Of a stretch of 11,523 nucleotides of DNA, positions 1-11,523 are shown one piece after another. This DNA comes from a virus. The notes under the pieces are model-generated. The model was given only the letters and a program-made list of their open reading frames with translations, was not told where the DNA came from and searched no databases. Location of the stretch: the UHGV virus genome UHGV-0861165; one strand, 5' to 3'. Each line of letters starts with the position of its first letter. Within the stretch, counting starts at the first letter, position 1. A program made the position numbers and the translations under genes.

Positions 1-2748
1 ATTGAGCATGGACCAGATGCTGTCCTGACTTTACCCGAGGGTAATGCCAGCGCAGGACTCCCGTCTTCCGTTCGCTACAATGCCGACTCCGACGAATTTG
101 AGGGCTTCTATGAAAATGGTGGATGGTTGCCGCTGGGTGGCGGTGGTATCCGCTGGGAAGTCCTTCCGCATGCCTCTACGGCAACGCTCACTGAAGGGCG
201 AGGCTATCTCATTAATAATACCACAGGGGCATCTACAGTGGTTCTCCCTTCCCCTACGCGTATTGGGGATTCTGTTACTATTTGTGATGCTTATGGGAAA
301 TTTGCCACTTACCCATTGACTGTGTCTCCTTCTGGAAATAATTTGTATGGCTCCACTGAAGACATGGCTATAACAACTGATAACGTATCAGCAACGTTCA
401 CTTGGTCTGGACCTGAACAAGGTTGGGTTATCACATCCGGTGTCGGTCTTGGCCAAGGTCGTGTCTACAGTCGTGAAATCTTTACAAAAATTTTGGCGTC
501 TGAAACAAGTGCTGTCGCTCTCAATACTCCACCAACAATCGTGGACGTGTATGCTGACGGAAAACGTCTTGCGGAATCCAAATATTCACTAGATGGGAAT
601 GTAATCACTTTCAGTCCTTCTTTGCCAGCCAACACAGAACTTCAGGTGATTGAATATACTCCTATTCAATTGGGTAATAGCGGTGGTTCTGGTTCTTCTA
701 CGATTACCTGGGTCTATAATGGGGGTTCAGCGATTGGCGGTGAAACCGAAATCACTTTGGACGTCGTTGTTGATGATGTTCCGGCCATTGATATAAACGG
801 AAGTCGCCAGTATAAAAATCTGGGATTCACATTCGATCCATTAACCAGTAAAATCTATCTTGCACAAGAACTGGAACCAGAGGATGAAGTTGTTGTAATT
901 ATCAATGGAACACCAAACATCTATAATCAAATTGATCATACTTTGCGGGAAGTTGCTCGTGCTACTAACGTTAAAGACAGTGAAGTAATTCTTAGTTCTG
1001 ACACTACTCAGTCCCTTAATGGTAAGAAGATTATTTACTCTGTTAGTGAGCAGAAGGCATATAGTTTACCTACTCTACCGTCCAATGTATTTATTGAATC
1101 TGTTGAAAGTGGGAAATTAACATATAGTCCTGGCTCAATTAAGGTAGATCTACTCCCATTACCTAATGACTCTGCTGTAACTGAGCAAGCAATTCTCAAC
1201 CAGTTGTCTGCAATTGAAGGTGAATCCCTTATTGGAACAGTTACCTATGTAACCCTGCGAGAGTACACAGGCTCAGCTACACGTGTTAAGTGTATCGGTA
1301 GAAGTGTAGAGGGGGATGGTGGTGAGGGGGACTTCTATTTAGTACCTGGTGATTCTACTTCAGTAGATGATGATGGGGTAATTATTGTTGATGGTTCCGG
1401 CCGTCGTTGGAAACGTTCCTATTCTGGCCCAATTTCTGCCTCTTGGTTCGGTGTAAGAGATGGTACTGACGTCACCACTACACTACAAAATGCAGTTAGT
1501 CGGGGTGGTGGACAAATCTTTGTACAGGACGGTCAGTACACACTTACTGCTCCCATCGTTGCAAATTTTACTGGTGCATCTTTCCCAATTATGGGAAGAA
1601 AAAGTAAGCGTTTTGATTTCATTGGTTCATCCATGGCGAACACCACTTTTAATACTAATGGTAATGAAGCGTTTAGTTTTACCGGTACTGATGGTTCTGT
1701 AGCTGGTCAGGGTGTACATAGTGGTGCACGTATTAGTGACTTCAGCGTCTATGGCACAAATAATACAGGCATTGGTGTACGTTTGGTTGGTGCTGCATAC
1801 CTCAAAGTACATGACCTCCAAATTAAACGTACTAATATCGCTATGCGTATTTCTGGTGTACTCTCAAGTGATATAAAACGAATCAATGCTCAATATAACA
1901 ACCATGGTATGTACATCACCAGTGCTTCTAACAGTACAGTCAATGCTATGCGTATTAGTGGGATGTTTGGTGCTAATAGTAAATGGGGAATTGAAGGTGA
2001 AGTAGGTACTAACGTATACATTGAAGATTCTAATTTTGAGGGTAATGGTACAGATGGGGATGAACTGTCTGGTGCTATTTACTTACGAGTTGTAGAACCT
2101 TTGAGCACCATTAACATTAGTGGGTACTTTGAGGCTAACGTTGGGCGAGCAGATATACTGATAGATAACCGAACCAGCTCTCCTTTGGTTGTAAACCTCC
2201 GTGGTTGCGTATTTAATCGTGGTGGTATGCGTGGTGGGTCTAATCTTGGTATTGGTGCAAAGTATAATGTTGAGACACGCTCTACTGGCGGTGGTCCAAT
2301 CATCCTTAATCTTAATGGTTGTGTATTCTTTACACAGACGGGTTTTGGATATGTACCTAGTGCAGATTCTCCATATATACAACCAGCACCATACTTAACT
2401 GTTAATGGGGAAGATACTTGTTACTTTAGTGAATCTACTAGTCGTGGTGAGACTGGGAACCGTGGTATGACATTAGGTATTTCTATGAAAGCTGATGGAA
2501 CCATGGCCAATAAACCACCTTTCTTAACCTCAACTCGTGTTTCTGCTGGTGTATACACCATCACACACAATACTAGATTCGGGACGGATATTGATCATTT
2601 CCAGGCAGTGGCTACGTCTAAGGCCAGTGGTTTTACTGTATCTTATGTGCAGAAGGTTAACTTACAGGCATTACGCATCGTTACATTAAATGCAGCAGGT
2701 TCGCCTGCTGATACTGATTTTGATGTTATAGTCACTTCTCGTCGTTAA
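1..2748 (+). CDS. Tail spike protein, long form, 5'-partial: N-terminal tandem small beta-domains (gp10-like by recollection), internal docking motif, then right-handed parallel beta-helix depolymerase-type domain
   Basis: Frame 1 has no stop from position 1 to TAA at 2746-2748. The ORF-track start at 127 is a TTG inside this open frame, so the gene begins upstream of the window. The translation shows periodic beta-helix-like repeats rich in G/N/S/T (e.g. GIGVRLVGAAYLKVHDLQIKRTNIAMRISG, NVYIEDSNFEGNG). It is paralogous to ORF3 in the docking motif (REVARATNVKDSEVIL...QKAYSLPTLP) and the pre-helix neck motif. Confidence 0.85.
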   Translation: MEHGPDAVLTLPEGNASAGLPSSVRYNADSDEFEGFYENGGWLPLGGGGIRWEVLPHASTATLTEGRGYLINNTTGASTVVLPSPTRIGDSVTICDAYGKFATYPLTVSPSGNNLYGSTEDMAITTDNVSATFTWSGPEQGWVITSGVGLGQGRVYSREIFTKILASETSAVALNTPPTIVDVYADGKRLAESKYSLDGNVITFSPSLPANTELQVIEYTPIQLGNSGGSGSSTITWVYNGGSAIGGETEITLDVVVDDVPAIDINGSRQYKNLGFTFDPLTSKIYLAQELEPEDEVVVIINGTPNIYNQIDHTLREVARATNVKDSEVILSSDTTQSLNGKKIIYSVSEQKAYSLPTLPSNVFIESVESGKLTYSPGSIKVDLLPLPNDSAVTEQAILNQLSAIEGESLIGTVTYVTLREYTGSATRVKCIGRSVEGDGGEGDFYLVPGDSTSVDDDGVIIVDGSGRRWKRSYSGPISASWFGVRDGTDVTTTLQNAVSRGGGQIFVQDGQYTLTAPIVANFTGASFPIMGRKSKRFDFIGSSMANTTFNTNGNEAFSFTGTDGSVAGQGVHSGARISDFSVYGTNNTGIGVRLVGAAYLKVHDLQIKRTNIAMRISGVLSSDIKRINAQYNNHGMYITSASNSTVNAMRISGMFGANSKWGIEGEVGTNVYIEDSNFEGNGTDGDELSGAIYLRVVEPLSTINISGYFEANVGRADILIDNRTSSPLVVNLRGCVFNRGGMRGGSNLGIGAKYNVETRSTGGGPIILNLNGCVFFTQTGFGYVPSADSPYIQPAPYLTVNGEDTCYFSESTSRGETGNRGMTLGISMKADGTMANKPPFLTSTRVSAGVYTITHNTRFGTDIDHFQAVATSKASGFTVSYVQKVNLQALRIVTLNAAGSPADTDFDVIVTSRR

Positions 2749-2754
2749 CTGATA

Positions 2755-2775
2755 CCCCTCCTCGGAGGGGGTTTC
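2755..2775 (+). terminator. Terminator-like GC hairpin (CCCCTC / GAGGGG stem, short loop) followed by TTTCT
   Basis: Perfect inverted repeat CCCCTC(2755-2760)...GAGGGG(2765-2770) with a T-rich 3' flank, 7 nt after the ORF1 stop. The T-tract is short, so it may be a partial terminator or an RNA-stability element. Confidence 0.55.
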
Positions 2776-2880
2776 TAGAAAAACAATGAGGTACATATGA
2801 ACGGATTATTCTTACAAGGTGGTAAAGGTTCAACCGGGATCTTAACCAATAAACAAGCAATAGCTCGGCATTTCGGTGTC
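2776..2880 (+). repeat. Junction cassette copy A: CTAGAAAAACAA-GAGGT-ATATGAACG plus conserved 5' coding segment of the short tail spike
   Basis: By eye, near-identical at nucleotide level to 8103-8209 (TAGAAAAACAAtGAGGTacATATGAACGgatTaTTCTtACAAGGTGGTAAAGG... versus TAGAAAAACAAaGAGGTttATATGAACGaaaTgTTCTcACAAGGTGGTAAAGG...). Includes the RBS (GAGG) and the ATG at 2797. Confidence 0.7.
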
Positions 2881-5301
2881 AAAGAAGACGAAGTCGTTTA
2901 TTTCACTGTCGGTATTGATCTCAGTGGATTTAAAGTAATTTATGATGAGTCTACCCAACGGGCTTATTCTCTTCCTTCAGGTATTGTTTCAGGAACGACT
3001 GCGATAAGCCTTAATTCTGCTGGGGTATTAGTCCATTCTGCTGGTAATGTGGATTTAGGTGCACTAGCTGTTACCCGGGAAGAGTATGTAACTTTACCTG
3101 GTTCATTCGAGACGGGTGTAACCGTTAATGCCAAGAATGAGTTAGTTGTCTTTGCGAATGGCAAGTATCGTTGGGATGGGGCATTGCCTAAAGTGGTTGA
3201 TGCAGCCTCATCCCCCGAAACCAGTGGTGGTATTGCTTCAGGTGCTTGGGTAGGTGTGGTTTCTGCTCTCCTAACAACAGCCAGCGGTACTGGGCTTGTA
3301 GGTCACAAAGGTGCTAACTTTAGTGACACCACTGCCTACCTTTACCTATCCTGGCGTAATGGTGATATTACTGCATTCGGGGGTGTGTACGATGACGCCT
3401 CAGCTGGTGATCTAAATAAAGCAGCCTTTGCTACTATGCAGGATACTTTTGGGGGTGTACGTATAAACCTCATGGGTAAAGCAGTTTACCTACCAAACTC
3501 TATGGAGTTAGAGGTAGGGAGTCTGGAAATCTGGGGTGGTGGTAATATTTTCGGTGGTTCTGGATACATGTTCCGTGCTGGTGACAACGGATTCGTTAAC
3601 ATTAAGGAATTTACCCTACAAAGTATTGATGCAAGTGGTAACGACTTCACTCGCCTTGTTGGTGCACCCTCTAATCGTGTTAACCTCATCCAGTATGTTG
3701 AAGCAGCATATTTCAAAACGATTGGAAGAGTCATCGTATTCGCTGGCAATGGTCGCGCCGGTGGAGACTTTAATCCAGTAGAGACAAGTTACGGCTGTAA
3801 GCAGATTAACTTCCATCACTTTTCATGCGAAGAGCCAGGAGACTATCTCGTTTCTGCCCAGAACTATCCGTTTGATACCTTCAGTGTCACTAAGTTTTAT
3901 GTACATAATATGAAGGGTACGCTCATCAATGCTGGAATTGATAACGATCATGTCTATGAGCGTCAGCTAAACCACGCAATGAAAACCCTCATCGTTTCCG
4001 ACTACACCGTCATGAACGAAGATGATTTCTGGGCTGATGGCGTCTTTACCTATACTACGGTAGCTATCGCTGAAGTTGAGCACCTAGTTCACACCAACGG
4101 TCGCCAACATGGTGTTAAAGTCAAAGAGGCTGGTAATGTAGTCTACGACATCTACAATAATGCATTTAGCGTCCAAGAAGAAAATATCTTTATCAGTGAC
4201 TGTTTCAACTGGAACGACGGGATGCTCATGCCTCACAAGATTAAAGGGGCGTGGAGCTATTCGAGTAAGAATAAGCACTGGGTGTACCGTAAGAGTTATG
4301 TGGTGGCAATGAAAGCTATTCACAGTGGTATTTCAGAAGGAAACGCCAAAGGTTCTTTCTTCTATCCCGAAACGGATGACCTGCACACTAGTGCTGCTTC
4401 TTCTGTCACTGATTGGACGCAACGACAAATCACGATCACTGACTGTTTCATTGAACTGATTAAAGTTAATCAGGCTAACCTTTCACGTCCATTGTTCAAT
4501 GTGCGTTTGGATGGCAACACCTTTGTTACACACGATTCTGGTACTACCCATTTGGTTCAGTTCTCTGCCTATCCCCATAACCTCTATCAGCAGATGACGG
4601 TAACAAATAACCGTATCATAGCTCCGGCTCTTACGTTATCTGCATTGGTAGGCTTCTCCGCAGGTTCTCAGGCTGGTGGAGGAGTATTCCAGGGGGTTGT
4701 CGATATTTCGAACAATACCGTTCGGGCAGCAGCGGCGAATTTGCTGGCAGATTGGTCTGGTGGTCAGAATATCGGAACTGGGTCAGTCATCCGTATCGAC
4801 AATAACGATATGGTTACCACAGGCAACTGCCAGATCTGTAACTCTAATCCGTCCTATGTTGACTCTGTATTTGCTAGAAACAACTATTTGCAGGGCACTG
4901 CGACTGTAGGGATGGGTAAGCTGAACGCATCTGCCTACGCATATGAGACTGTGAATGGGTTTAAGGGGAACAGTCCGATTGTTCTGTTCCAGCAGGGAAT
5001 CCCAACAGCGCAGCAGATTAATAGTCGCTCGTATCGCCTGGAGATTTCTGGAACTAATGGTGAGAAAGTAACCCAAGGTTTCACTATCACTGCTGGCGTC
5101 AGCACGACTTCAATACGCTTCGTGAGTTCCGATGGGAACACGTACACGAAGGTAACTGGAACCGATAATGGCACCTTCGAAATGCAATCCACTTCATCGG
5201 ATGGGTTAAATTTAGAGGTCGTGGTTGCATCTGATGGTGTAACAGTCAGAACAGCGTCGTCTGTGATGCAAAGGTTTGAAGCTCGACTGTATGCTCTGTA
5301 A
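2797..5301 (+). CDS. Tail spike protein, short form (834 aa): N-terminal anchor module shared with ORF4, divergent central and C-terminal receptor-binding/enzymatic region
   Basis: ATG at 2797 preceded by GAGG with a 5-nt spacer; uninterrupted 2505-nt ORF. The first ~155 aa (MNGLFLQGGKGSTGILTNKQAIARHFGVKEDEVVYF...KVIYDESTQRAYSLP...) are clearly homologous to the ORF4 N-terminus. The C-terminus is rich in G/T/S/V beta-strand-like sequence typical of tail spike C-terminal domains. Enzymatic fold not assignable by eye. Confidence 0.85.
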   Translation: MNGLFLQGGKGSTGILTNKQAIARHFGVKEDEVVYFTVGIDLSGFKVIYDESTQRAYSLPSGIVSGTTAISLNSAGVLVHSAGNVDLGALAVTREEYVTLPGSFETGVTVNAKNELVVFANGKYRWDGALPKVVDAASSPETSGGIASGAWVGVVSALLTTASGTGLVGHKGANFSDTTAYLYLSWRNGDITAFGGVYDDASAGDLNKAAFATMQDTFGGVRINLMGKAVYLPNSMELEVGSLEIWGGGNIFGGSGYMFRAGDNGFVNIKEFTLQSIDASGNDFTRLVGAPSNRVNLIQYVEAAYFKTIGRVIVFAGNGRAGGDFNPVETSYGCKQINFHHFSCEEPGDYLVSAQNYPFDTFSVTKFYVHNMKGTLINAGIDNDHVYERQLNHAMKTLIVSDYTVMNEDDFWADGVFTYTTVAIAEVEHLVHTNGRQHGVKVKEAGNVVYDIYNNAFSVQEENIFISDCFNWNDGMLMPHKIKGAWSYSSKNKHWVYRKSYVVAMKAIHSGISEGNAKGSFFYPETDDLHTSAASSVTDWTQRQITITDCFIELIKVNQANLSRPLFNVRLDGNTFVTHDSGTTHLVQFSAYPHNLYQQMTVTNNRIIAPALTLSALVGFSAGSQAGGGVFQGVVDISNNTVRAAAANLLADWSGGQNIGTGSVIRIDNNDMVTTGNCQICNSNPSYVDSVFARNNYLQGTATVGMGKLNASAYAYETVNGFKGNSPIVLFQQGIPTAQQINSRSYRLEISGTNGEKVTQGFTITAGVSTTSIRFVSSDGNTYTKVTGTDNGTFEMQSTSSDGLNLEVVVASDGVTVRTASSVMQRFEARLYAL

Positions 5302-5302
5302 G

Positions 5303-5330
5303 AACAACCCCGCTTCGGCGGGTTCTTGTT
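5303..5330 (+). terminator. Terminator-like hairpin with CCCGC-TTCG-GCGGG core (UUCG-type tetraloop) and T-rich 3' flank
   Basis: CCCGC(5309-5313) TTCG GCGGG(5318-5322), flanked by partially complementary AACAA/TTGTT arms, followed by TTCTTGTT. Lies immediately after the ORF2 stop (5299-5301). Confidence 0.45.
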
Positions 5331-5360
5331 ATACCTTTGTTCATAAATTTATTAGTTCAG

Positions 5361-5368
5361 ACTAAATA
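5361..5368 (+). promoter_or_regulatory. ACTAAATA motif, candidate phage late-promoter-like element (T4 late consensus TATAAATA, 6/8 match)
   Basis: The same octamer recurs at 10350-10357 upstream of ORF5, followed in both cases by a similar leader (ATGGRG-ATC-(2-3 nt)-AAATG). The spacing to the downstream start is 34-36 nt if ORF3 starts at 5405. Confidence 0.3.
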
Positions 5369-5404
5369 CCCCATATTGGCAAATCCTCTATGGGGTATCT
5401 TCAA

Positions 5405-8068
5405 ATGACCAGAAACGTCGAGAGCATCTTTGGAGCGGTCGTAACAGCTCCGCACCAGATTCCATACACTTACACAGCAACGGGCGGAGAGAAGTTTATC
5501 TCCCTCCCTTTCTACCCTGTCACTGGTATAGTCACAATCAACGGTGGTATGCAAGTTCCGTTAGACAACTTTGAAATCGATGGAAATACGTTGAATCTCG
5601 GGTGTGCATTATCCAAAGGTGACGTTGTGTTCTGTCTGTTTGATAAGATTCTGTCTCCAGAAGATTATAAAACTGGGATTCGAATCTATAAGTTTCAGGC
5701 TATAGGAGGTGAAACCGAGTTCACTCCTGATTACACATCCTATGGAGTCCAATCTCTTTATATCGGTGGTGAGTACAAAACACCCGAAATTGAATATTCC
5801 TATGACAGCACGACAGGGAAAGTGACTTTACAAACTGCGCTGACTGCAGGCGTTTGGGTAGTCGCTGAAATGTCTGTTAAACAACCGAATATCAGTCCGT
5901 TGTTTGACCGAAGTATTCAAGAAATCGCCCGTTCAGCTAATGTAAAAGATTCTGAGGTAATTCTTAATACGGATACATCTCAAGTACTCAATAACAAGAA
6001 AGTTATCTTCGATGCAGCTGCTCAGAAAATTTATGGCCTGCCTTCATTACCGACCAATGTCTATATTAGTTCTGTGTCTAATGGTCAGTTAACCTACAGT
6101 CCAGGTAACATTACCGTAGATTTGATGGAAGTTCCTAATTCTGGTGCTAGTCTCAGAGAAGACCTGAGTAAGCCTGATGGTAGCAAGCTCATTGGTTCAT
6201 GCCCCAATATTGCAGTACTGCGAACAATTGAGCCTACCTATGCTGAACAACGCATTTACGTAGAAGCACATACTGAAGGTATGATTGCAACCAATGCAGG
6301 TGATTTAGGTGGCGGGTATTTTGTATATAAACCATCTGTTACATCAGCAGATGACAATGGTATGACTATTGTTACTGCATCCGGCAAGCGTTGGGTACGT
6401 GATTTACGTGGTAGCACCGAAGTTACCCCATCTATGTTTGGTGCGTGGATGGATGCTCCTTATATTGATGGGAGCACTATTCAGGGTACACCTTATCCTA
6501 AAGCACCAAGTATGGGGGCTGCTGACCTGTCTGGTGTGCACAATGATGGGGATGCTTTGCTGGCAACCTACACATATGCTGTAGCTAATGGGTTGAATAT
6601 CAAAATTACTCAACCGATGTACATTGGTGATACACAGATTGATATTAGCAATCAGCGTTGGACTGGTAGATCTCTATCCATTACGGGTCTTGGTCAGAGA
6701 CAAAGTATTATTTATACATCAGGTAAGGGTGGATTCATCTCTACCAGATGGGGACACAATATTACCGTTGGTCGCCTCTCTTTCCGTAATGCTGATTCTG
6801 ATTACGTAGGTAGTCCTCTTGTTATCAGTTCATTCGACTTAAGTAATGGCATCGGTGGTGGTGGTAAAACATTCAATATTCACGATGTGGACTTTTACCA
6901 CTATAAGTTCGCTTTGCCTATGGCTTGCTTTGTCAGTGTTATGACCAATTTGTATGCATATGACTGTACCTATGGTTTTGGTATCAATGGAAGCACTAGT
7001 ACGGATATGTCATCTATTTGGGCACACCATTGTGACATTGGCTTTTTATGGGGAGCTGCCATTAATCGTACTACATACGAGCCAGCCAATAATGAAACAC
7101 CTGTTATGTATGTTGCTACCAGCAACATTGCAGCAGATGGTTGCATTTTACCTCATAAATTTTATGGAGATATTCGTAGCCTTTCCTTCTCTGGCTTTGG
7201 TATTGAAGGGATAAATGGTCCAGTGGCATTAGACTTCTCACAGTTAGCCTCCCCTGCTGCACAAACAACAATCGTATTCAGAGATGTTTCTTGTTGGATT
7301 CAGTCTAAAATGAATACTGGTGTAACTCATTTTATTGAGTTGCCTGCTAATGAGTACCAGGCTGGTAGGATTATTTTTGACAGTGGTTACGTTAACTCTG
7401 ACTATGCTATCAAATTGATGGAGAATACCACTTCTCCAAGTAACCAGTATATTGGGCGTAGTGTTACATTAAATAGTAATTTTGAATTTTTAAAAGTTAG
7501 CGATGGTTCCTACACAATATCTACATATAACCGTGGTAACCTTTACCGGGGCAGGGTATATGGAGAAGATATTGTACAAGGTCGTAACTCGTACACGGGT
7601 ACTACTTTGTCAGCAATCCATTCTAATAGTAATTCCTTCTTCAGAAGTGTTGACCATAAGGAAGCTACTGTACTGGTTCCATGGAACAGGGCTTTAGATA
7701 TATTCCTTTGTGCTGTAGGGGAAGAGACTAAAATTCCGGATGGTTGCTTCGTTGCTGGGCGTGCAGATATCATTCCAGTTAACAAAAATGGTTTGGCTGG
7801 TACTGAATCAGGGGGCAGTATTCTGTTTGGGCTATCCGGTAGCACACAGGAAAATGTAGCCTCTGGTGCAGTCTGGTCTAATATGATTGCTGGTGATAAA
7901 TCTCTTTCCGGGGTAACAGTAACTAAACTGGTACGTGATGGTAAAACATTTGTTAGAATCGCATTGCCTACGGCAAGCCTAACAAATGCAATCGTTCACC
8001 TTTCTGTAACCTACTGTGGTTTTGCACATTACTACGATAAGCGTTGGGAAATAAAACCCTTAAGCTAA
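5405..8068 (+). CDS. Tail spike protein, long form (887 aa from ATG 5405; 892 aa if the in-frame ATG at 5390 is used): N-terminal tandem small beta-domains, docking motif, neck motif, beta-helix depolymerase-type domain
   Basis: Uninterrupted frame to TAA 8066-8068. Start ambiguity: the ATG at 5390 has no SD and sits in the 3' arm of an inverted repeat, whereas the ATG at 5405 has a leader that parallels the ORF5 leader. The protein is paralogous to ORF1 in the docking motif (QEIARSANVKDSEVIL...QKIYGLPSLP) and the neck motif (GGGYFVYKPSVTSADDNGMTIVTASGKRWVRD). Confidence 0.85.
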   Translation: MTRNVESIFGAVVTAPHQIPYTYTATGGEKFISLPFYPVTGIVTINGGMQVPLDNFEIDGNTLNLGCALSKGDVVFCLFDKILSPEDYKTGIRIYKFQAIGGETEFTPDYTSYGVQSLYIGGEYKTPEIEYSYDSTTGKVTLQTALTAGVWVVAEMSVKQPNISPLFDRSIQEIARSANVKDSEVILNTDTSQVLNNKKVIFDAAAQKIYGLPSLPTNVYISSVSNGQLTYSPGNITVDLMEVPNSGASLREDLSKPDGSKLIGSCPNIAVLRTIEPTYAEQRIYVEAHTEGMIATNAGDLGGGYFVYKPSVTSADDNGMTIVTASGKRWVRDLRGSTEVTPSMFGAWMDAPYIDGSTIQGTPYPKAPSMGAADLSGVHNDGDALLATYTYAVANGLNIKITQPMYIGDTQIDISNQRWTGRSLSITGLGQRQSIIYTSGKGGFISTRWGHNITVGRLSFRNADSDYVGSPLVISSFDLSNGIGGGGKTFNIHDVDFYHYKFALPMACFVSVMTNLYAYDCTYGFGINGSTSTDMSSIWAHHCDIGFLWGAAINRTTYEPANNETPVMYVATSNIAADGCILPHKFYGDIRSLSFSGFGIEGINGPVALDFSQLASPAAQTTIVFRDVSCWIQSKMNTGVTHFIELPANEYQAGRIIFDSGYVNSDYAIKLMENTTSPSNQYIGRSVTLNSNFEFLKVSDGSYTISTYNRGNLYRGRVYGEDIVQGRNSYTGTTLSAIHSNSNSFFRSVDHKEATVLVPWNRALDIFLCAVGEETKIPDGCFVAGRADIIPVNKNGLAGTESGGSILFGLSGSTQENVASGAVWSNMIAGDKSLSGVTVTKLVRDGKTFVRIALPTASLTNAIVHLSVTYCGFAHYYDKRWEIKPLS

Positions 8069-8078
8069 TTAACTACCC

Positions 8079-8102
8079 CCACCCCCTTTATGGGGGTGGT
8101 TT
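8079..8102 (+). terminator. Terminator-like hairpin CCACCCCC-TTTAT-GGGGGTGG followed by TTT
   Basis: Perfect 8-bp inverted repeat (8079-8086 / 8092-8099) with a 5-nt loop and a TTT 3' tail, 10 nt after the ORF3 stop. Confidence 0.6.
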
Positions 8103-8209
8103 ACTAGAAAAACAAAGAGGTTTATATGAACGAAATGTTCTCACAAGGTGGTAAAGGCTCCACTGGTATTCTTACCAATAAGCAAGCCATTGCCCGTAAG
8201 TTTGGTGTT
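8103..8209 (+). repeat. Junction cassette copy B (see 2776-2880)
   Basis: Nucleotide-level similarity to copy A spans the leader, RBS, ATG (8126) and the first ~80 nt of coding sequence. Confidence 0.7.
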
Positions 8210-10297
8210 AAGCAATCTGAGGTTGTTTATGCCAAATCAGGACAGTCCTTGTCTGGTTATAAAGTAATCTACGATAAGGTCACTCAGCGCTCCTATGCAC
8301 TGCCTTCTAACCTGCCTGCTGGCGCTACCATCACCAGCCTGACAGACGGCATTCTCGTACACAATACGGGCACCGTAGACCTGGGTGCTCTGGCTGTACT
8401 GCGCGGGGAGTTCGTTACTCTGGTCGAAAACTTTACGTCTGGATTTACGATTCGTGTCAAAAACGAAGTTGTAAGTGATGGGGTAAATTTGTATCGCTGG
8501 GGTGGTAGTTTACCAAAGACCGTTAATTCTGGTGAAACTTTAGAAAGCACTGGGGGTATGAATACGAATGCGTGGATTGGCGTTGTATCGCTTAATAACT
8601 CATTTTTGAGTGTAAATGCTCTAAGGGCGTCAGAAAACTTAAATAAAAATATACCATTGTTTCTTTCAAGTTATTATGAAGGTATTGATGGCGGCGGCGG
8701 GTCTTTCTACGTAGATACCAACGACACTACGTCATCAGATAACAATGGTACAGTATTTGTTAACGCCTCTGGCCAGCGCATAAAACGTATTTCAGATGGT
8801 GTATGTCGTTGGTCAGACTTCGGAATTCTTCCAGGCATGCCGGTAGCGCCTACAAAATCGCAGTGTGAAGCCGTTTGGTCGTGGGGGTTTGCAAATGGGT
8901 GTACTCGTTATGAAACCTTCCAGAAAGGGGAGATGACGTTCACCTTCCCCCTGTTGTTCCAAGTTCCGGCTAACTGGACAGGTGGTGCTGTTAGCTTCAT
9001 TGCAGAAGGGTTGCATAAATTTGCTTATGATTTCAAAAATGGCGCTACAGATGATGTGATTGAGATCCTCCTTAAACTGGAAGATCTGTCAGGTAATACA
9101 CCCATCCATACTGTTTATAATTTTGATAACGTTGGGATGGGACGGTTCCCCGGGAAAAACATCCGATATACCGCACTGCGACACACGAGCGCAAAAAACT
9201 CAATGATCAAGGTTACTGGGAAGAACAACTACGGATATGCCTTGTTCATAGGCGGTAGTGATAACAGCATCGTGTACAATTCAACGTTTTATAACTGCGA
9301 TGGCCAGTTGCTTGTAAATTCTCCAGCAGGCGGTTACGACAGCTTTGGTGATGCAATTTATGTTGGCGCTAAAAATGTGTCTATCCAGAGTCCTGTAATT
9401 GAAACAACACAGGGTGGTAGAGCCGGTATCGTATTTGAAGGGACATGGGTTGAACGTGTTGGTGGTGAGGTAACAAACTGCTTTATTAAGGGATATGACC
9501 GTGGTATTCACATAGAGACTGTAGGTTTCAGGATGGATGCAATTAATATTACTGGAGGCAGGATACAAGATTGCAATACCAGCGTATTGGCATTCAATGG
9601 TGTAACTGATGATATGGGTAGTGATATGTCTGTTATCATCAAGGGGTTAACGTCAAGGCTTGATAGCACAATTTCAGGCCACGCCAATCCGTCTGGTTTT
9701 AGCCTGGGACACCTTATGGTATCTGGAGTTAACACACAAGTAACAACGGAAGGGTGCTCATGGCAGACTCACCAGAACAACATCACCGTTGTGGGTAATG
9801 GGAAATGGGTGAGCAATGGTGACCGCATGTTTGTTAACTCTGGTGGCATCAACCTGCCGTACACTCGTGGGTGCGAGATAAACAATCTGTACGCACCACA
9901 GAACAGAAACGCGTTAAAATCCGCAGGTAATTTAGTCTTTACAAACTCTTATTGGGGAGGGGACATTAACATAACCGGGGGCAATAAAACAATTATTGAT
10001 AACGTCGAGATGTCAAGACAAGGAGGATATGCAAACTGTGGTCGTATCAGTCTGGTTGGCTCCAATAGTGCGATATTGCGTAATATTATATTCCAGTATC
10101 CAGACTCATGGGCAATAGATAATACTCAAACTTGGCAGGTCCCCGTGTGTCCTATCATAGAAAACATCCACGTAAATAGCGTAGAAACAGGAACTGCAAC
10201 ATTACAAAGAAACGCAGAAAGTGGGGCTAATAATCGGTACAGAAGGTCTATTCCTTCATATATATCAAACGGAAGTACATGGACGATAATTAGTTAA
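8126..10297 (+). CDS. Tail spike protein, short form (723 aa): shared N-terminal anchor module, neck motif, right-handed beta-helix (pectate-lyase-like) depolymerase-type domain
   Basis: ATG at 8126 preceded by GAGG (8117-8120); uninterrupted 2172-nt ORF. The N-terminal ~150 aa are homologous to ORF2. Typical beta-helix repeats are visible (GGSDNSIVYNSTFYNCDGQLLVNS, AIYVGAKNVSIQSPVIETTQGGRAGIVFEG, TNCFIKGYDRGIHIET). Confidence 0.88.
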   Translation: MNEMFSQGGKGSTGILTNKQAIARKFGVKQSEVVYAKSGQSLSGYKVIYDKVTQRSYALPSNLPAGATITSLTDGILVHNTGTVDLGALAVLRGEFVTLVENFTSGFTIRVKNEVVSDGVNLYRWGGSLPKTVNSGETLESTGGMNTNAWIGVVSLNNSFLSVNALRASENLNKNIPLFLSSYYEGIDGGGGSFYVDTNDTTSSDNNGTVFVNASGQRIKRISDGVCRWSDFGILPGMPVAPTKSQCEAVWSWGFANGCTRYETFQKGEMTFTFPLLFQVPANWTGGAVSFIAEGLHKFAYDFKNGATDDVIEILLKLEDLSGNTPIHTVYNFDNVGMGRFPGKNIRYTALRHTSAKNSMIKVTGKNNYGYALFIGGSDNSIVYNSTFYNCDGQLLVNSPAGGYDSFGDAIYVGAKNVSIQSPVIETTQGGRAGIVFEGTWVERVGGEVTNCFIKGYDRGIHIETVGFRMDAINITGGRIQDCNTSVLAFNGVTDDMGSDMSVIIKGLTSRLDSTISGHANPSGFSLGHLMVSGVNTQVTTEGCSWQTHQNNITVVGNGKWVSNGDRMFVNSGGINLPYTRGCEINNLYAPQNRNALKSAGNLVFTNSYWGGDINITGGNKTIIDNVEMSRQGGYANCGRISLVGSNSAILRNIIFQYPDSWAIDNTQTWQVPVCPIIENIHVNSVETGTATLQRNAESGANNRYRRSIPSYISNGSTWTIIS

Positions 10298-10302
10298 CAA
10301 AG

Positions 10303-10330
10303 CCCCTCTTCGGAGGGGTTTCTTCTTTCT
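10303..10330 (+). terminator. Rho-independent-type terminator: CCCCTC-TTCG-GAGGGG hairpin followed by TTTCTTCTTTCT
   Basis: Perfect 6-bp GC stem with a TTCG tetraloop and a pyrimidine/T-rich tail, 5 nt after the ORF4 stop. The stem sequence is nearly the same as the hairpin at 2755-2775. Confidence 0.65.
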
Positions 10331-10339
10331 ATTCCTCGG

Positions 10340-10367
10340 TTGGTTGTATACTAAATATCTCTATAAT
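10340..10367 (+). promoter_or_regulatory. Candidate promoter upstream of ORF5: TTGGTT (weak -35) - 16 nt - TATAAT (consensus -10); overlaps the ACTAAATA motif at 10350-10357
   Basis: A perfect TATAAT hexamer at 10362-10367 lies ~24 nt upstream of ATG 10392, with RBS GGAG at 10381-10384. The -35 is poor (3/6). The alternative reading is a phage late-type promoter centred on ACTAAATA. Confidence 0.3.
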
Positions 10368-10391
10368 GGCACCTATCGATGGAGCATCAAA

Positions 10392-11523
10392 ATGCAAGAA
10401 ATGAACCTCAACCGCCGCCCATATTGGGATGACTGGAATCCAGAGAAGCGTTTTTCGCGCATCCTATTCCGTCCGGCACCTATCAAAGTTCAGACGCGTG
10501 AACTGAACCAGATGCAGACCATCTTCCAGGATCAACTGGAGAAACTTGGCAACCATCTGTTCAAAGACGGTTCAATGGTTATCCCCGGCGGCCTGACGAT
10601 CACCAACACTGCTGTGTCCATGAAGTTCACTCTGGCTGGTGGTAGTGAGTTCACTGATCTGGAAGGTATCTCCGAACTCTATGTTCTGGGCAAGGACAAC
10701 AATGCGAAAGCACGCGTCCTGTCCTTGGAACGTTACCCAGCTGAGCCGGATACAATGTATGCCATCTTAGAGATGACTGAGAGTGGTAGTTCAGACGGTT
10801 TCGAAGCTGGCGACAATCTATACTTCAACACCTATGACGTGAACGATAACTTCATCCGTGTCGGCTATGGCGTGGCCGATACTGTTGGCGGTTCGATTGT
10901 CGCTCGCATGACAAAGGGTGTTTATTTCGTTCGTGGTATGTTCCTGGATGTTGAACCAACCACTTTGATCGTAGACAACGCATCGAACTCTACATCTCAC
11001 CGCATTGGCTTCAAAGTTACAGAAACAATCGTGACCGAAGCAGAAGATGAAAGTCTGTTCTCCAATGCTCAGGGTACTCCGAACTCTAAAGCCCCTGGTG
11101 CGCATCGCCTGCGCGTCGACCTCGTGTTGTCTCGCTACGGTTATGATGAAGAAGTGGCCGACTTCGTTGAACTGGCGAAGGTGAAAGACGGTCGCATTCA
11201 GTCCATGGTCACCCAGTCAACGTACAACATCCTCGAAGACGCCATGGCTCAGCGTACCTATGAGACCAATGGTGACTACAACGTCTCTACTCACCAGATC
11301 GACCTGCGTGAACATCTGAAAGAGAACAACAACGGCGGCGTTTACACTCCGGCTGAAGGTGGTGATGAAAGCAAATTCGTGGCGGTTATGAAGCCAGGCA
11401 TTTCCTACGTTCGTGGTCGTCGTATCGAAAACCTCGGCGAAGAGCTGGTCATAATTGACAAAGCCCGTGACACTGATATCCTGAACAACAACCCTGTGGC
11501 TGTTTCGACTGGCAACTATCTGG
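10392..11523 (+). CDS. Conserved phage structural protein of unknown function (possibly baseplate- or tail-associated), 3'-partial
   Basis: ATG at 10392 with a good RBS (GGAG, 7-nt spacer); the frame is open to the window end, so it is absent from the ORF track. It looks visibly GC-richer, with more host-like codon choice, than the spike genes, and it lacks beta-helix repeats and the spike N-terminal modules. The function is inferred only from its position next to the spike cluster. Confidence 0.75.
   Translation, partial: MQEMNLNRRPYWDDWNPEKRFSRILFRPAPIKVQTRELNQMQTIFQDQLEKLGNHLFKDGSMVIPGGLTITNTAVSMKFTLAGGSEFTDLEGISELYVLGKDNNAKARVLSLERYPAEPDTMYAILEMTESGSSDGFEAGDNLYFNTYDVNDNFIRVGYGVADTVGGSIVARMTKGVYFVRGMFLDVEPTTLIVDNASNSTSHRIGFKVTETIVTEAEDESLFSNAQGTPNSKAPGAHRLRVDLVLSRYGYDEEVADFVELAKVKDGRIQSMVTQSTYNILEDAMAQRTYETNGDYNVSTHQIDLREHLKENNNGGVYTPAEGGDESKFVAVMKPGISYVRGRRIENLGEELVIIDKARDTDILNNNPVAVSTGNYL

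Follow-up and report, generated by a model that had tools for sequence, protein, structure and literature searches.

The stretch of viral DNA analysed here (UHGV virus genome UHGV-0861165; 11,523 nucleotides, all of which is referred to below as the window) is the tail spike (tsp) cluster of an Agtrevirus-like Ackermannviridae phage. At its 3' end lies an incomplete open reading frame (ORF), ORF5, which sequence comparison identifies as codons 1-377 of vriC (or vrlC), a conserved late gene that bounds the tsp cluster in the Ackermannviridae. The frame begins with the ATG at 10392-10394, with a GGAG (10381-10384) 7 nucleotides (nt) 5' of it, and runs without a stop to the end of the window (377 codons plus 1 base), and it is at this ATG that the gene of phage AV101 is annotated to start. 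The product is identical at 377/377 positions (100%) to the N-terminal 377 residues of USL85814.1 (Enterobacter phage fGh-Ecl02; 1,612 residues in all). The features of the locus are collected in Table 1.

Table 1. Features of the window, with the vriC part and its encoded segments first and the upstream spike genes last (GC3, G+C fraction at third codon positions).
Feature	Position	Strand	Remarks
ORF5, 5' part of vriC/vrlC	10392-11523	+	codons 1-377 of ~1,612; open at window end
Encoded N-terminal conserved segment, residues 4-71	10401-10604	+	phmmer and BLASTP alignments; corresponds to about residues 3-69 of the phage 812/A3R tripod protein
Encoded beta-rich domain, residues 72-202	10605-10997	+	phmmer collinear map; no aligned counterpart in the Staphylococcus tripod protein (~33 residues there)
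Encoded residues 203-377, best-conserved DUF4815 segment in the window	10998-11522	+	aligns with tripod residues 104-281
Conserved vriC leader	10322-10391	+	CTAAATA 10351-10357, TATAAT 10362-10367, ribosome-binding site GGAG 10381-10384
Intrinsic-terminator-like hairpin after the last spike gene	10300-10321	+	9 pairs, 5 of them G-C, loop of 4; top terminator-like site in the window
Four tail spike genes	1-10297	+	low GC3, mosaic; context of ORF5; all five long ORFs of the window are on this strand
ORF1, TSP4 gene cut at its 5' end	1-2748	+	open from base 1; start calling gives only an internal TTG at 127
ORF2, tail spike	2797-5301	+	Pfam Tail_spike_N
ORF3, tail spike	5390-8068	+	N-terminal module in common with other spikes
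ORF4, tail spike	8126-10297	+	Pfam Tail_spike_N

Positions 10298-11523 were compared by megablast with GenBank phages. This matched 71 phage records, 65 of which cover at least 80% of the query at 80-99% DNA identity, and the matches span Agtrevirus, Kuttervirus and Limestonevirus-type phages. Those among the matches listed are all Ackermannviridae, with Salmonella, Escherichia, Shigella, Enterobacter and Yersinia as hosts, and the organism tally adds phages of Dickeya and Erwinia. DNA identity is 97.8-99.3% to AV101, A221, YX22 and LHE287 among others, and the gene is variously labelled in the matched records as "virulence-associated protein VriC", "VrlC protein", "tail fiber protein" or "hypothetical protein". 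At the protein level the full-length VriC of fGh-Ecl02 is 95.5% identical to that of LIMEstone1 and ~83% identical to the orthologues of Kuttervirus and Klebsiella phages.

The 377-residue fragment has a sole Pfam match, DUF4815 (PF16075), which scores 122 bits against a gathering cutoff of 30 (E 3.1e-35) and reaches 205.9 bits in the full-length relative. It also matches PHROG 358 (E 2e-143), and an NCBIfam scan of both the fragment and full-length VriC returned no family. Relatives were found in 1,697 phage records; beyond the Ackermannviridae these include T4-like cyanophages, where the protein is labelled "virion structural protein", phages of Vibrio, Rhizobium and Methylophilales, and Herelleviridae of Staphylococcus, Listeria, Bacillus and Enterococcus, where it is labelled "adsorption-associated tail protein" or TmpG. 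No evidence contradicting the identity of the gene was found. On the opposite strand within ORF5 there is a 95-codon ORF (10818-11105) at a position where no relative has an annotated gene; it is most likely a chance open frame.

The surroundings of ORF5 are also those of vriC. In relatives, baseplate wedge genes and four tsp genes come first, then vriC, and after it the gp13/gp14 neck genes, terminase and sheath; in the window ORF5 likewise comes after four spike ORFs, in the tsp-flanking position opposite the baseplate wedge genes. In AV101, fGh-Ecl02, YX22, A221, vB_CECAV_050 and Ag3, vriC is 4,839 bp long and is the first gene after the tsp cluster; two small ORFs and the gp13/gp14 neck genes come next in the four loci that reach far enough, and terminase, sheath, tube and portal genes lie further 3' in AV101, fGh-Ecl02 and Ag3. 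The gene has been used as a conserved marker flanking the tsp cluster (PMC8432352) and the same tsp-vriC arrangement has been described (PMC8432352; PMC11721090). The assignment of ORF5 is thus correct but ordinary, as both the gene and its arrangement were already known.

Several observations support ORF5 being a virion gene. The orthologue in the kuttervirus Sajous1 gave 311 spectra in CsCl-purified virions and was the fourth most abundant protein by spectra (PMC10892097), the orthologue is annotated as a structural protein in both Ag3 and LIMEstone1, and the product is homologous to a baseplate protein of solved structure (see below). The initial annotation of this DNA, made from its letters alone, had taken ORF5 for a structural gene, in agreement with these data, and had held that its function could not be assigned from sequence alone; it missed that the gene has a name and is a standard published marker of the tsp cluster.

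VriC shares 83-100% protein identity across phages with differing hosts and spike sets. This is the opposite of what is seen in a host-range determinant, and makes it unlikely that ORF5 is a fifth receptor-binding fibre or spike that sets host range and not a tripod-like baseplate accessory. There are points in favour of such a role: one relative labels the gene "tail fiber protein", the Kayvirus homologues are labelled "adsorption-associated tail protein", the full-length C-terminus weakly resembles the trimer domain of the HK620 tailspike, and the tripod homologue bears carbohydrate-binding modules. However, ORF5 contains neither a beta-helix nor a Tail_spike_N module, and it has no similarity to the spikes of the window (best BLASTP E 0.58). 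Further, if VriC binds a receptor, this must be a component of the envelope that is conserved, and not a glycan specific to a serotype. The fifth spike was therefore rejected, since ORF5 has no modules in common with the spikes and is too conserved across hosts.

ORF5 differs from the spike genes in composition as well. Its G+C content is 0.504 and its GC3 is 0.568, against a G+C content of 0.42-0.46 in ORF1 to ORF4 and GC3 values of 0.299, 0.427, 0.341 and 0.418 respectively. By chi-square the GC3 of ORF5 differs from that of each spike (p 7e-6 to 5e-19) and from that of the pooled spikes (p 8e-14), and none of the 1,860 in-frame segments of 377 codons within the spikes reaches 0.568 (maximum 0.496, mean 0.364, standard deviation 0.070). 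Since the G+C fraction at second codon positions is lower in ORF5 than in the spikes (0.374 versus 0.43-0.47), the difference in G+C is synonymous and is not caused by amino acid content. The relative synonymous codon usage of ORF5 correlates at 0.29-0.54 with that of individual spikes, at 0.80 with that of 31 E. coli K-12 genes and at 0.88 with that of 14 backbone genes of fGh-Ecl02. In that phage the non-spike genes (n=28) have a GC3 of 0.552 +/- 0.063, full-length VriC has 0.593 and the four spikes have 0.32-0.48. The composition of ORF5 is thus the norm of the phage backbone, which is itself close to E. coli, and the spike genes are the outliers; the DNA that looks foreign and recombines is that of the spikes and not that of ORF5. 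Low GC3 extends to the conserved N-terminal modules of the window's spikes (0.31-0.44), so that the whole tsp cluster deviates from the backbone, beyond its receptor-binding parts alone.

It could be argued that this contrast reflects selection on expression, with ORF5 codon-optimised and the spikes not, and no separate origin of the spike cassette. The resemblance of ORF5 codons to those of E. coli genes and the abundance of the VriC orthologue in virions would fit such an explanation, but it is very improbable. Backbone genes of all kinds, including DNA polymerase and small hypotheticals, share a GC3 of 0.50-0.65, from which it follows that ORF5 is typical and that it is the spikes which lie outside the range; the spikes, moreover, are likewise abundant virion proteins. 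Recombination is pointed to directly by the patchy, mosaic spikes as against the continuous conservation of vriC.

The extent of this mosaicism can be seen from the matches to relatives. The largest part of the whole window covered by any phage record is 42%. Against AV101 and fGh-Ecl02 the spikes match in patches (the N-terminal modules, and one whole spike in fGh-Ecl02), whereas the match of ORF5 is unbroken at 97-99%. In an alignment of the junction from seven phages, next to nothing changes from the hairpin across the 70-nt leader and into vriC, and relatives preserve the stem of the hairpin with other sequences; 5' of the hairpin, the window is unlike every one of the aligned relatives. 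The matches of relatives that run to the end of the window start at 10298 (AV101) and 10315 (fGh-Ecl02). On these alignments the conserved backbone begins at the hairpin (10300-10321).

Judged by composition, codon usage and conservation, ORF5 is therefore a vertically inherited backbone gene. The initial annotation had described it as richer in G+C than the spikes and host-like in its codons, as free of spike N-terminal modules and of helix repeats, and as a core gene abutting a mobile spike cassette. All of this agrees with what was found, with the refinement that the likeness is to an E. coli-like host and that the codons are more exactly backbone-like; the proteins to which ORF5 is homologous are structural ones, and its G+C and codon statistics do differ from those of the spikes.

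The leader between the hairpin and vriC is the same in the seven phages bar two positions. It contains the motif CTAAATA, 41 nt before the ATG of ORF5. In 48 kb of fGh-Ecl02, 9 of the 11 copies of CTAAATA are intergenic, where intergenic sequence makes up 12% of the DNA, and each intergenic copy lies 30-49 nt 5' of a gene start in the same orientation, often as CTAAATACCCC. The genes that follow are the gp6 wedge gene, TSP4, TSP3, TSP2, VriC, gp14, the sheath, the scaffold and one hypothetical on the other strand; seven copies precede identified structural genes. From this pattern CTAAATA is probably a phage promoter motif of structural genes. Papers on Viunalikevirus reportedly give a late-promoter consensus CTAAATAcCcc; the motif of the structural genes may be a late one. 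A literature search for the CTAAATA motif found no relevant phage paper, and a scan for sigma-70-type promoters gave no qualifying site 5' of ORF5, the arrangement TTGGTT-16 nt-TATAAT being below threshold. A further copy of CTAAATA is present in the window at 5362-5368, 28 nt 5' of ORF3. ORF2 and ORF4 are without the motif and have a common leader instead, CTAGAAAAACAA(T/A)GAGGT.

A G+C-rich hairpin is found within a few bases 3' of every spike in the window, at 2753-2775 (CCCCTCCTCGGAGGGGG), 5309-5322 (CCCGCTTCGGCGGG), 8077-8100 (CCCCCACCCCCTTTATGGGGGTGG) and 10300-10321 (AAGCCCCTCTTCGGAGGGGTTT); the promoter and terminator scan reports only the second and fourth of these. Each spike therefore looks like a separately terminated unit, and if so, exchange of a cassette would be neutral for the neighbouring genes. 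In three relatives (positions 28793-28880 of the fGh-Ecl02 locus, 12113-12200 of the YX22 locus and 8696-8790 of the A221 locus) about 45-50 nt of intergenic sequence before the vriC terminator, GGAGGTCT.GAATCCATGACCATAACC.CAGAAAGATAA, almost exactly repeats the 3' end of the last spike gene in the vB_CECAV_050 locus (12482-12538), stop codon included, and AV101 retains only the last ~15 nt of it (CAGAAAGATAATCAAAG). In fGh-Ecl02, YX22 and A221 this stretch looks like a remnant of a last spike gene that has been replaced. The window is without such a remnant, the stop of ORF4 being 2 nt before the hairpin.

Upstream, the first 308 residues of ORF1 match residues 31-338 of a 341-residue tailspike N-terminal fragment of known crystal structure (7REJ, 7RFO; E 2.7e-183), which we take to be the baseplate anchor of CBA120 TSP4. 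Since the match starts at residue 31 of the fragment, the window begins ~30 codons into the TSP4 gene. N-terminal modules are common among the four spikes (BLASTP E 1e-6 to 1e-50). The first 156 residues of ORF2 and ORF4 (2797-3264 and 8126-8590) are 58% identical, Tail_spike_N included, and this sequence likeness suggests that the two dock alike. Identity is 96% both for ORF3 with the third spike of fGh-Ecl02 and for the N-terminal module of ORF1 with AV101; most of the C-terminal part of ORF1, together with ORF2 and ORF4, has no match in these two phages. The four spikes of the window were absent as a set from the phage collection (August 2025), and the window looks like a new combination of spikes on a known backbone.

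The weakest of the alternatives, that ORF5 is a cargo gene affecting pathogenicity, has in its favour the name "virulence-associated protein VriC/VrlC", an annotation label in many records, and is scarcely credible: the label has been passed on by similarity, purified virions are rich in the protein (the Sajous1 orthologue), the gene sits inside the late structural module behind a structural-gene leader, and its product is homologous to a structurally solved baseplate component and falls in no NCBIfam family, so that proteomics, synteny and structural homology effectively refute this reading and leave the name as an annotation relic. The label derives from the vrl locus of Dichelobacter nodosus.

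What, then, might VriC do in the virion? Its only relative of solved structure is a "DUF4815 domain-containing protein" of Staphylococcus phage 812, seen by cryo-electron microscopy of the baseplate (PDB chain 9euf_0 and its copies, 1,152 residues), which is matched at E 1.6e-14 by the fragment and at E 1.3e-53 by the full-length relative. The N-terminal sequence of this chain matches TmpG of Kayvirus A3R, a phage in which the order is TmpF (1,019 residues), BmpC (173), TmpG (1,152), a small ORF, and proteins of 640, 124 and 458 residues. In phage 812 the order is arm scaffold gp117, arm segment gp118, tripod gp119, receptor-binding protein RBP1 gp121, a 124-residue coupler and RBP2 gp123 (PMC13433997). 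Since the N-terminus of the chain is that of A3R TmpG and the gene orders match, the chain is the tripod protein. The alignment with it consists of collinear blocks, VriC residues 4-71, 203-380, 712-1307 and 1453-1592 corresponding to tripod residues 3-69, 104-281, 393-948 and 1007-1130.

Three segments of the encoded N-terminal region can be distinguished on this basis. In the first (residues 4-71), P10, D13, D14, L25, P28, Q34, R36, E37, L38 and Q42 are nearly invariant in the family, and a long helix is predicted by AlphaFold2 at residues 36-56. The second (residues 72-202) is, going by the alignments, an insertion of the VriC type; it is all beta strand in the AlphaFold2 model, with a predicted local distance difference test score (pLDDT) mostly of 80-90 across the block, and the family alignment is variable there. 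In the third (residues 203-377), N225, G228, N231, G236, A237, R239 and F258 are invariant. Apart from helices at 36-56 and 280-291, the model of this 377-residue part consists largely of beta structure, and its overall pLDDT is 71.6; it was computed from an alignment of 22 mostly short metagenomic fragments, the yield of a homologue search that contained no full-length VriC. When this model was searched with Foldseek, the top three hits were phage 812 baseplate chains, with a probability of 1.00 and E-values down to 7.5e-9.

A number of observations weigh against equating VriC with the tripod protein. The monomer model superposes on the tripod chains with template modelling (TM) scores of only 0.27-0.31 and a root mean square deviation of ~25 A, and its overall confidence is moderate. 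The low global score can be attributed to a multi-domain monomer having been taken out of its trimer; as far as the model goes, local folds would agree in Foldseek, and the domain arrangement of the monomer is not comparable with that of the trimer chains. Identity in the aligned blocks is 27-38%, and the tripod protein comes from a phage of a Gram-positive host with a different baseplate architecture. VriC is also 460 residues longer, with insertions at 72-202, 381-711 and 1308-1452. Full-length VriC gave no LysM match in Pfam, so the LysM-like hook typical of a tripod protein is not seen there, and its C-terminal region aligns weakly with tripod residues 1007-1130, which would include the hook (E 2e-5 to 1e-3). 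The C-terminus of VriC weakly resembles, in addition, the C-terminal trimer domain of the HK620 tailspike (E 3e-4). This part is encoded beyond the window, at 32842-33780 of the fGh-Ecl02 locus (VriC residues 1300-1612), where Phage_spike_2 of Pfam scores below its cutoff; such a C-terminus is consistent with a trimeric, spike-like distal end. Comparison with the PDB of the 284- and 396-residue proteins of fGh-Ecl02, whose genes separate the gp6-like wedge gene from the tsp cluster, revealed no arm scaffold homologue by sequence beside the cluster.

Phage 812 has twelve tripod trimers, which are seated on docking loops of its baseplate arms and held there via insertion loops of the flap domain. 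The tripods bear carbohydrate-binding modules, and on binding to the cell they rotate and refold, a rearrangement that frees the central spike and is propagated to the sheath initiator (PMC13433997). A 2024 review has proposed that VriC forms the prong-like structures under the baseplate, from its likeness to the A511 and phage 812 proteins (PMC11721090); to this published speculation the window adds only homology. By analogy, VriC trimers would be anchored at the rim of the baseplate by the N-terminal region, the portion that the window encodes; in phage 812 this region contains the spine helices and the flap domain, which grip a docking loop of the arm. The remaining two thirds, toward the C-terminus and encoded outside the window, would then face the cell and might touch its surface after O-antigen or capsule has been bound and cut by the spikes. 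VriC could in this way help stabilise or set off the change in the baseplate that comes before contraction of the sheath, and its trimers may be what electron micrographs show as "prongs" beneath Ackermannviridae baseplates.

Taken as a whole, it is highly probable that ORF5 is the start of vriC, a backbone gene beside foreign-looking spikes, and that its product has a putative tripod-like role in the baseplate. The fuller proposal, to which we give somewhat less than an even chance, is that VriC could be the Gram-negative counterpart of the tripod: a trimeric, conformationally switching "prong" organ that would sense a conserved component of the envelope once O-antigen or capsule has been removed by the spikes, and would so couple the spikes to sheath contraction, and in which the beta domain at residues 72-202 might adapt the N-terminal docking to a T4-like wedge without an arm scaffold.

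With a clean annotation, vriC serves as the standard anchor by which spike cassettes are located and compared. The step in composition at ~10300 marks the point up to which recombination can reshuffle the spikes without touching the backbone, which is useful for the engineering of spike swaps. The protein itself is abundant in virions and is found widely in myophages of Gram-negative, Gram-positive and cyanobacterial hosts, and it has been characterised only in the Herelleviridae.

Three groups of known proteins can be set beside ORF5. The VrlC-like proteins of cyanophages and of Vibrio, Rhizobium and Methylophilales phages have DUF4815, are annotated as structural and align with VriC at 29-39% identity, starting at residue 1 or 2 and ending near residue 1300-1400, or over the full length in the Vibrio phages; they are more distant, have other C-termini and do not adjoin a four-spike cassette. 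The Herelleviridae tripod proteins (phage 812 gp119/TmpG and Listeria phage A511 Gp106; PDB 9EUF, 9EUI and 9TIC among others) also have DUF4815 in common with VriC, and both are virion tail proteins encoded beside receptor-binding genes. The VriC/VrlC proteins of the Ackermannviridae (for example AV101 WJJ54140.1, fGh-Ecl02 USL85814.1, Ag3 orf00206 and the "unknown structural protein" of LIMEstone1) are the products of the same gene as ORF5, which is like theirs in its tsp-adjacent position, its leader and its start codon; the distance from the last spike to vriC is 94 nt in this phage and 300-600 nt in some of these relatives.

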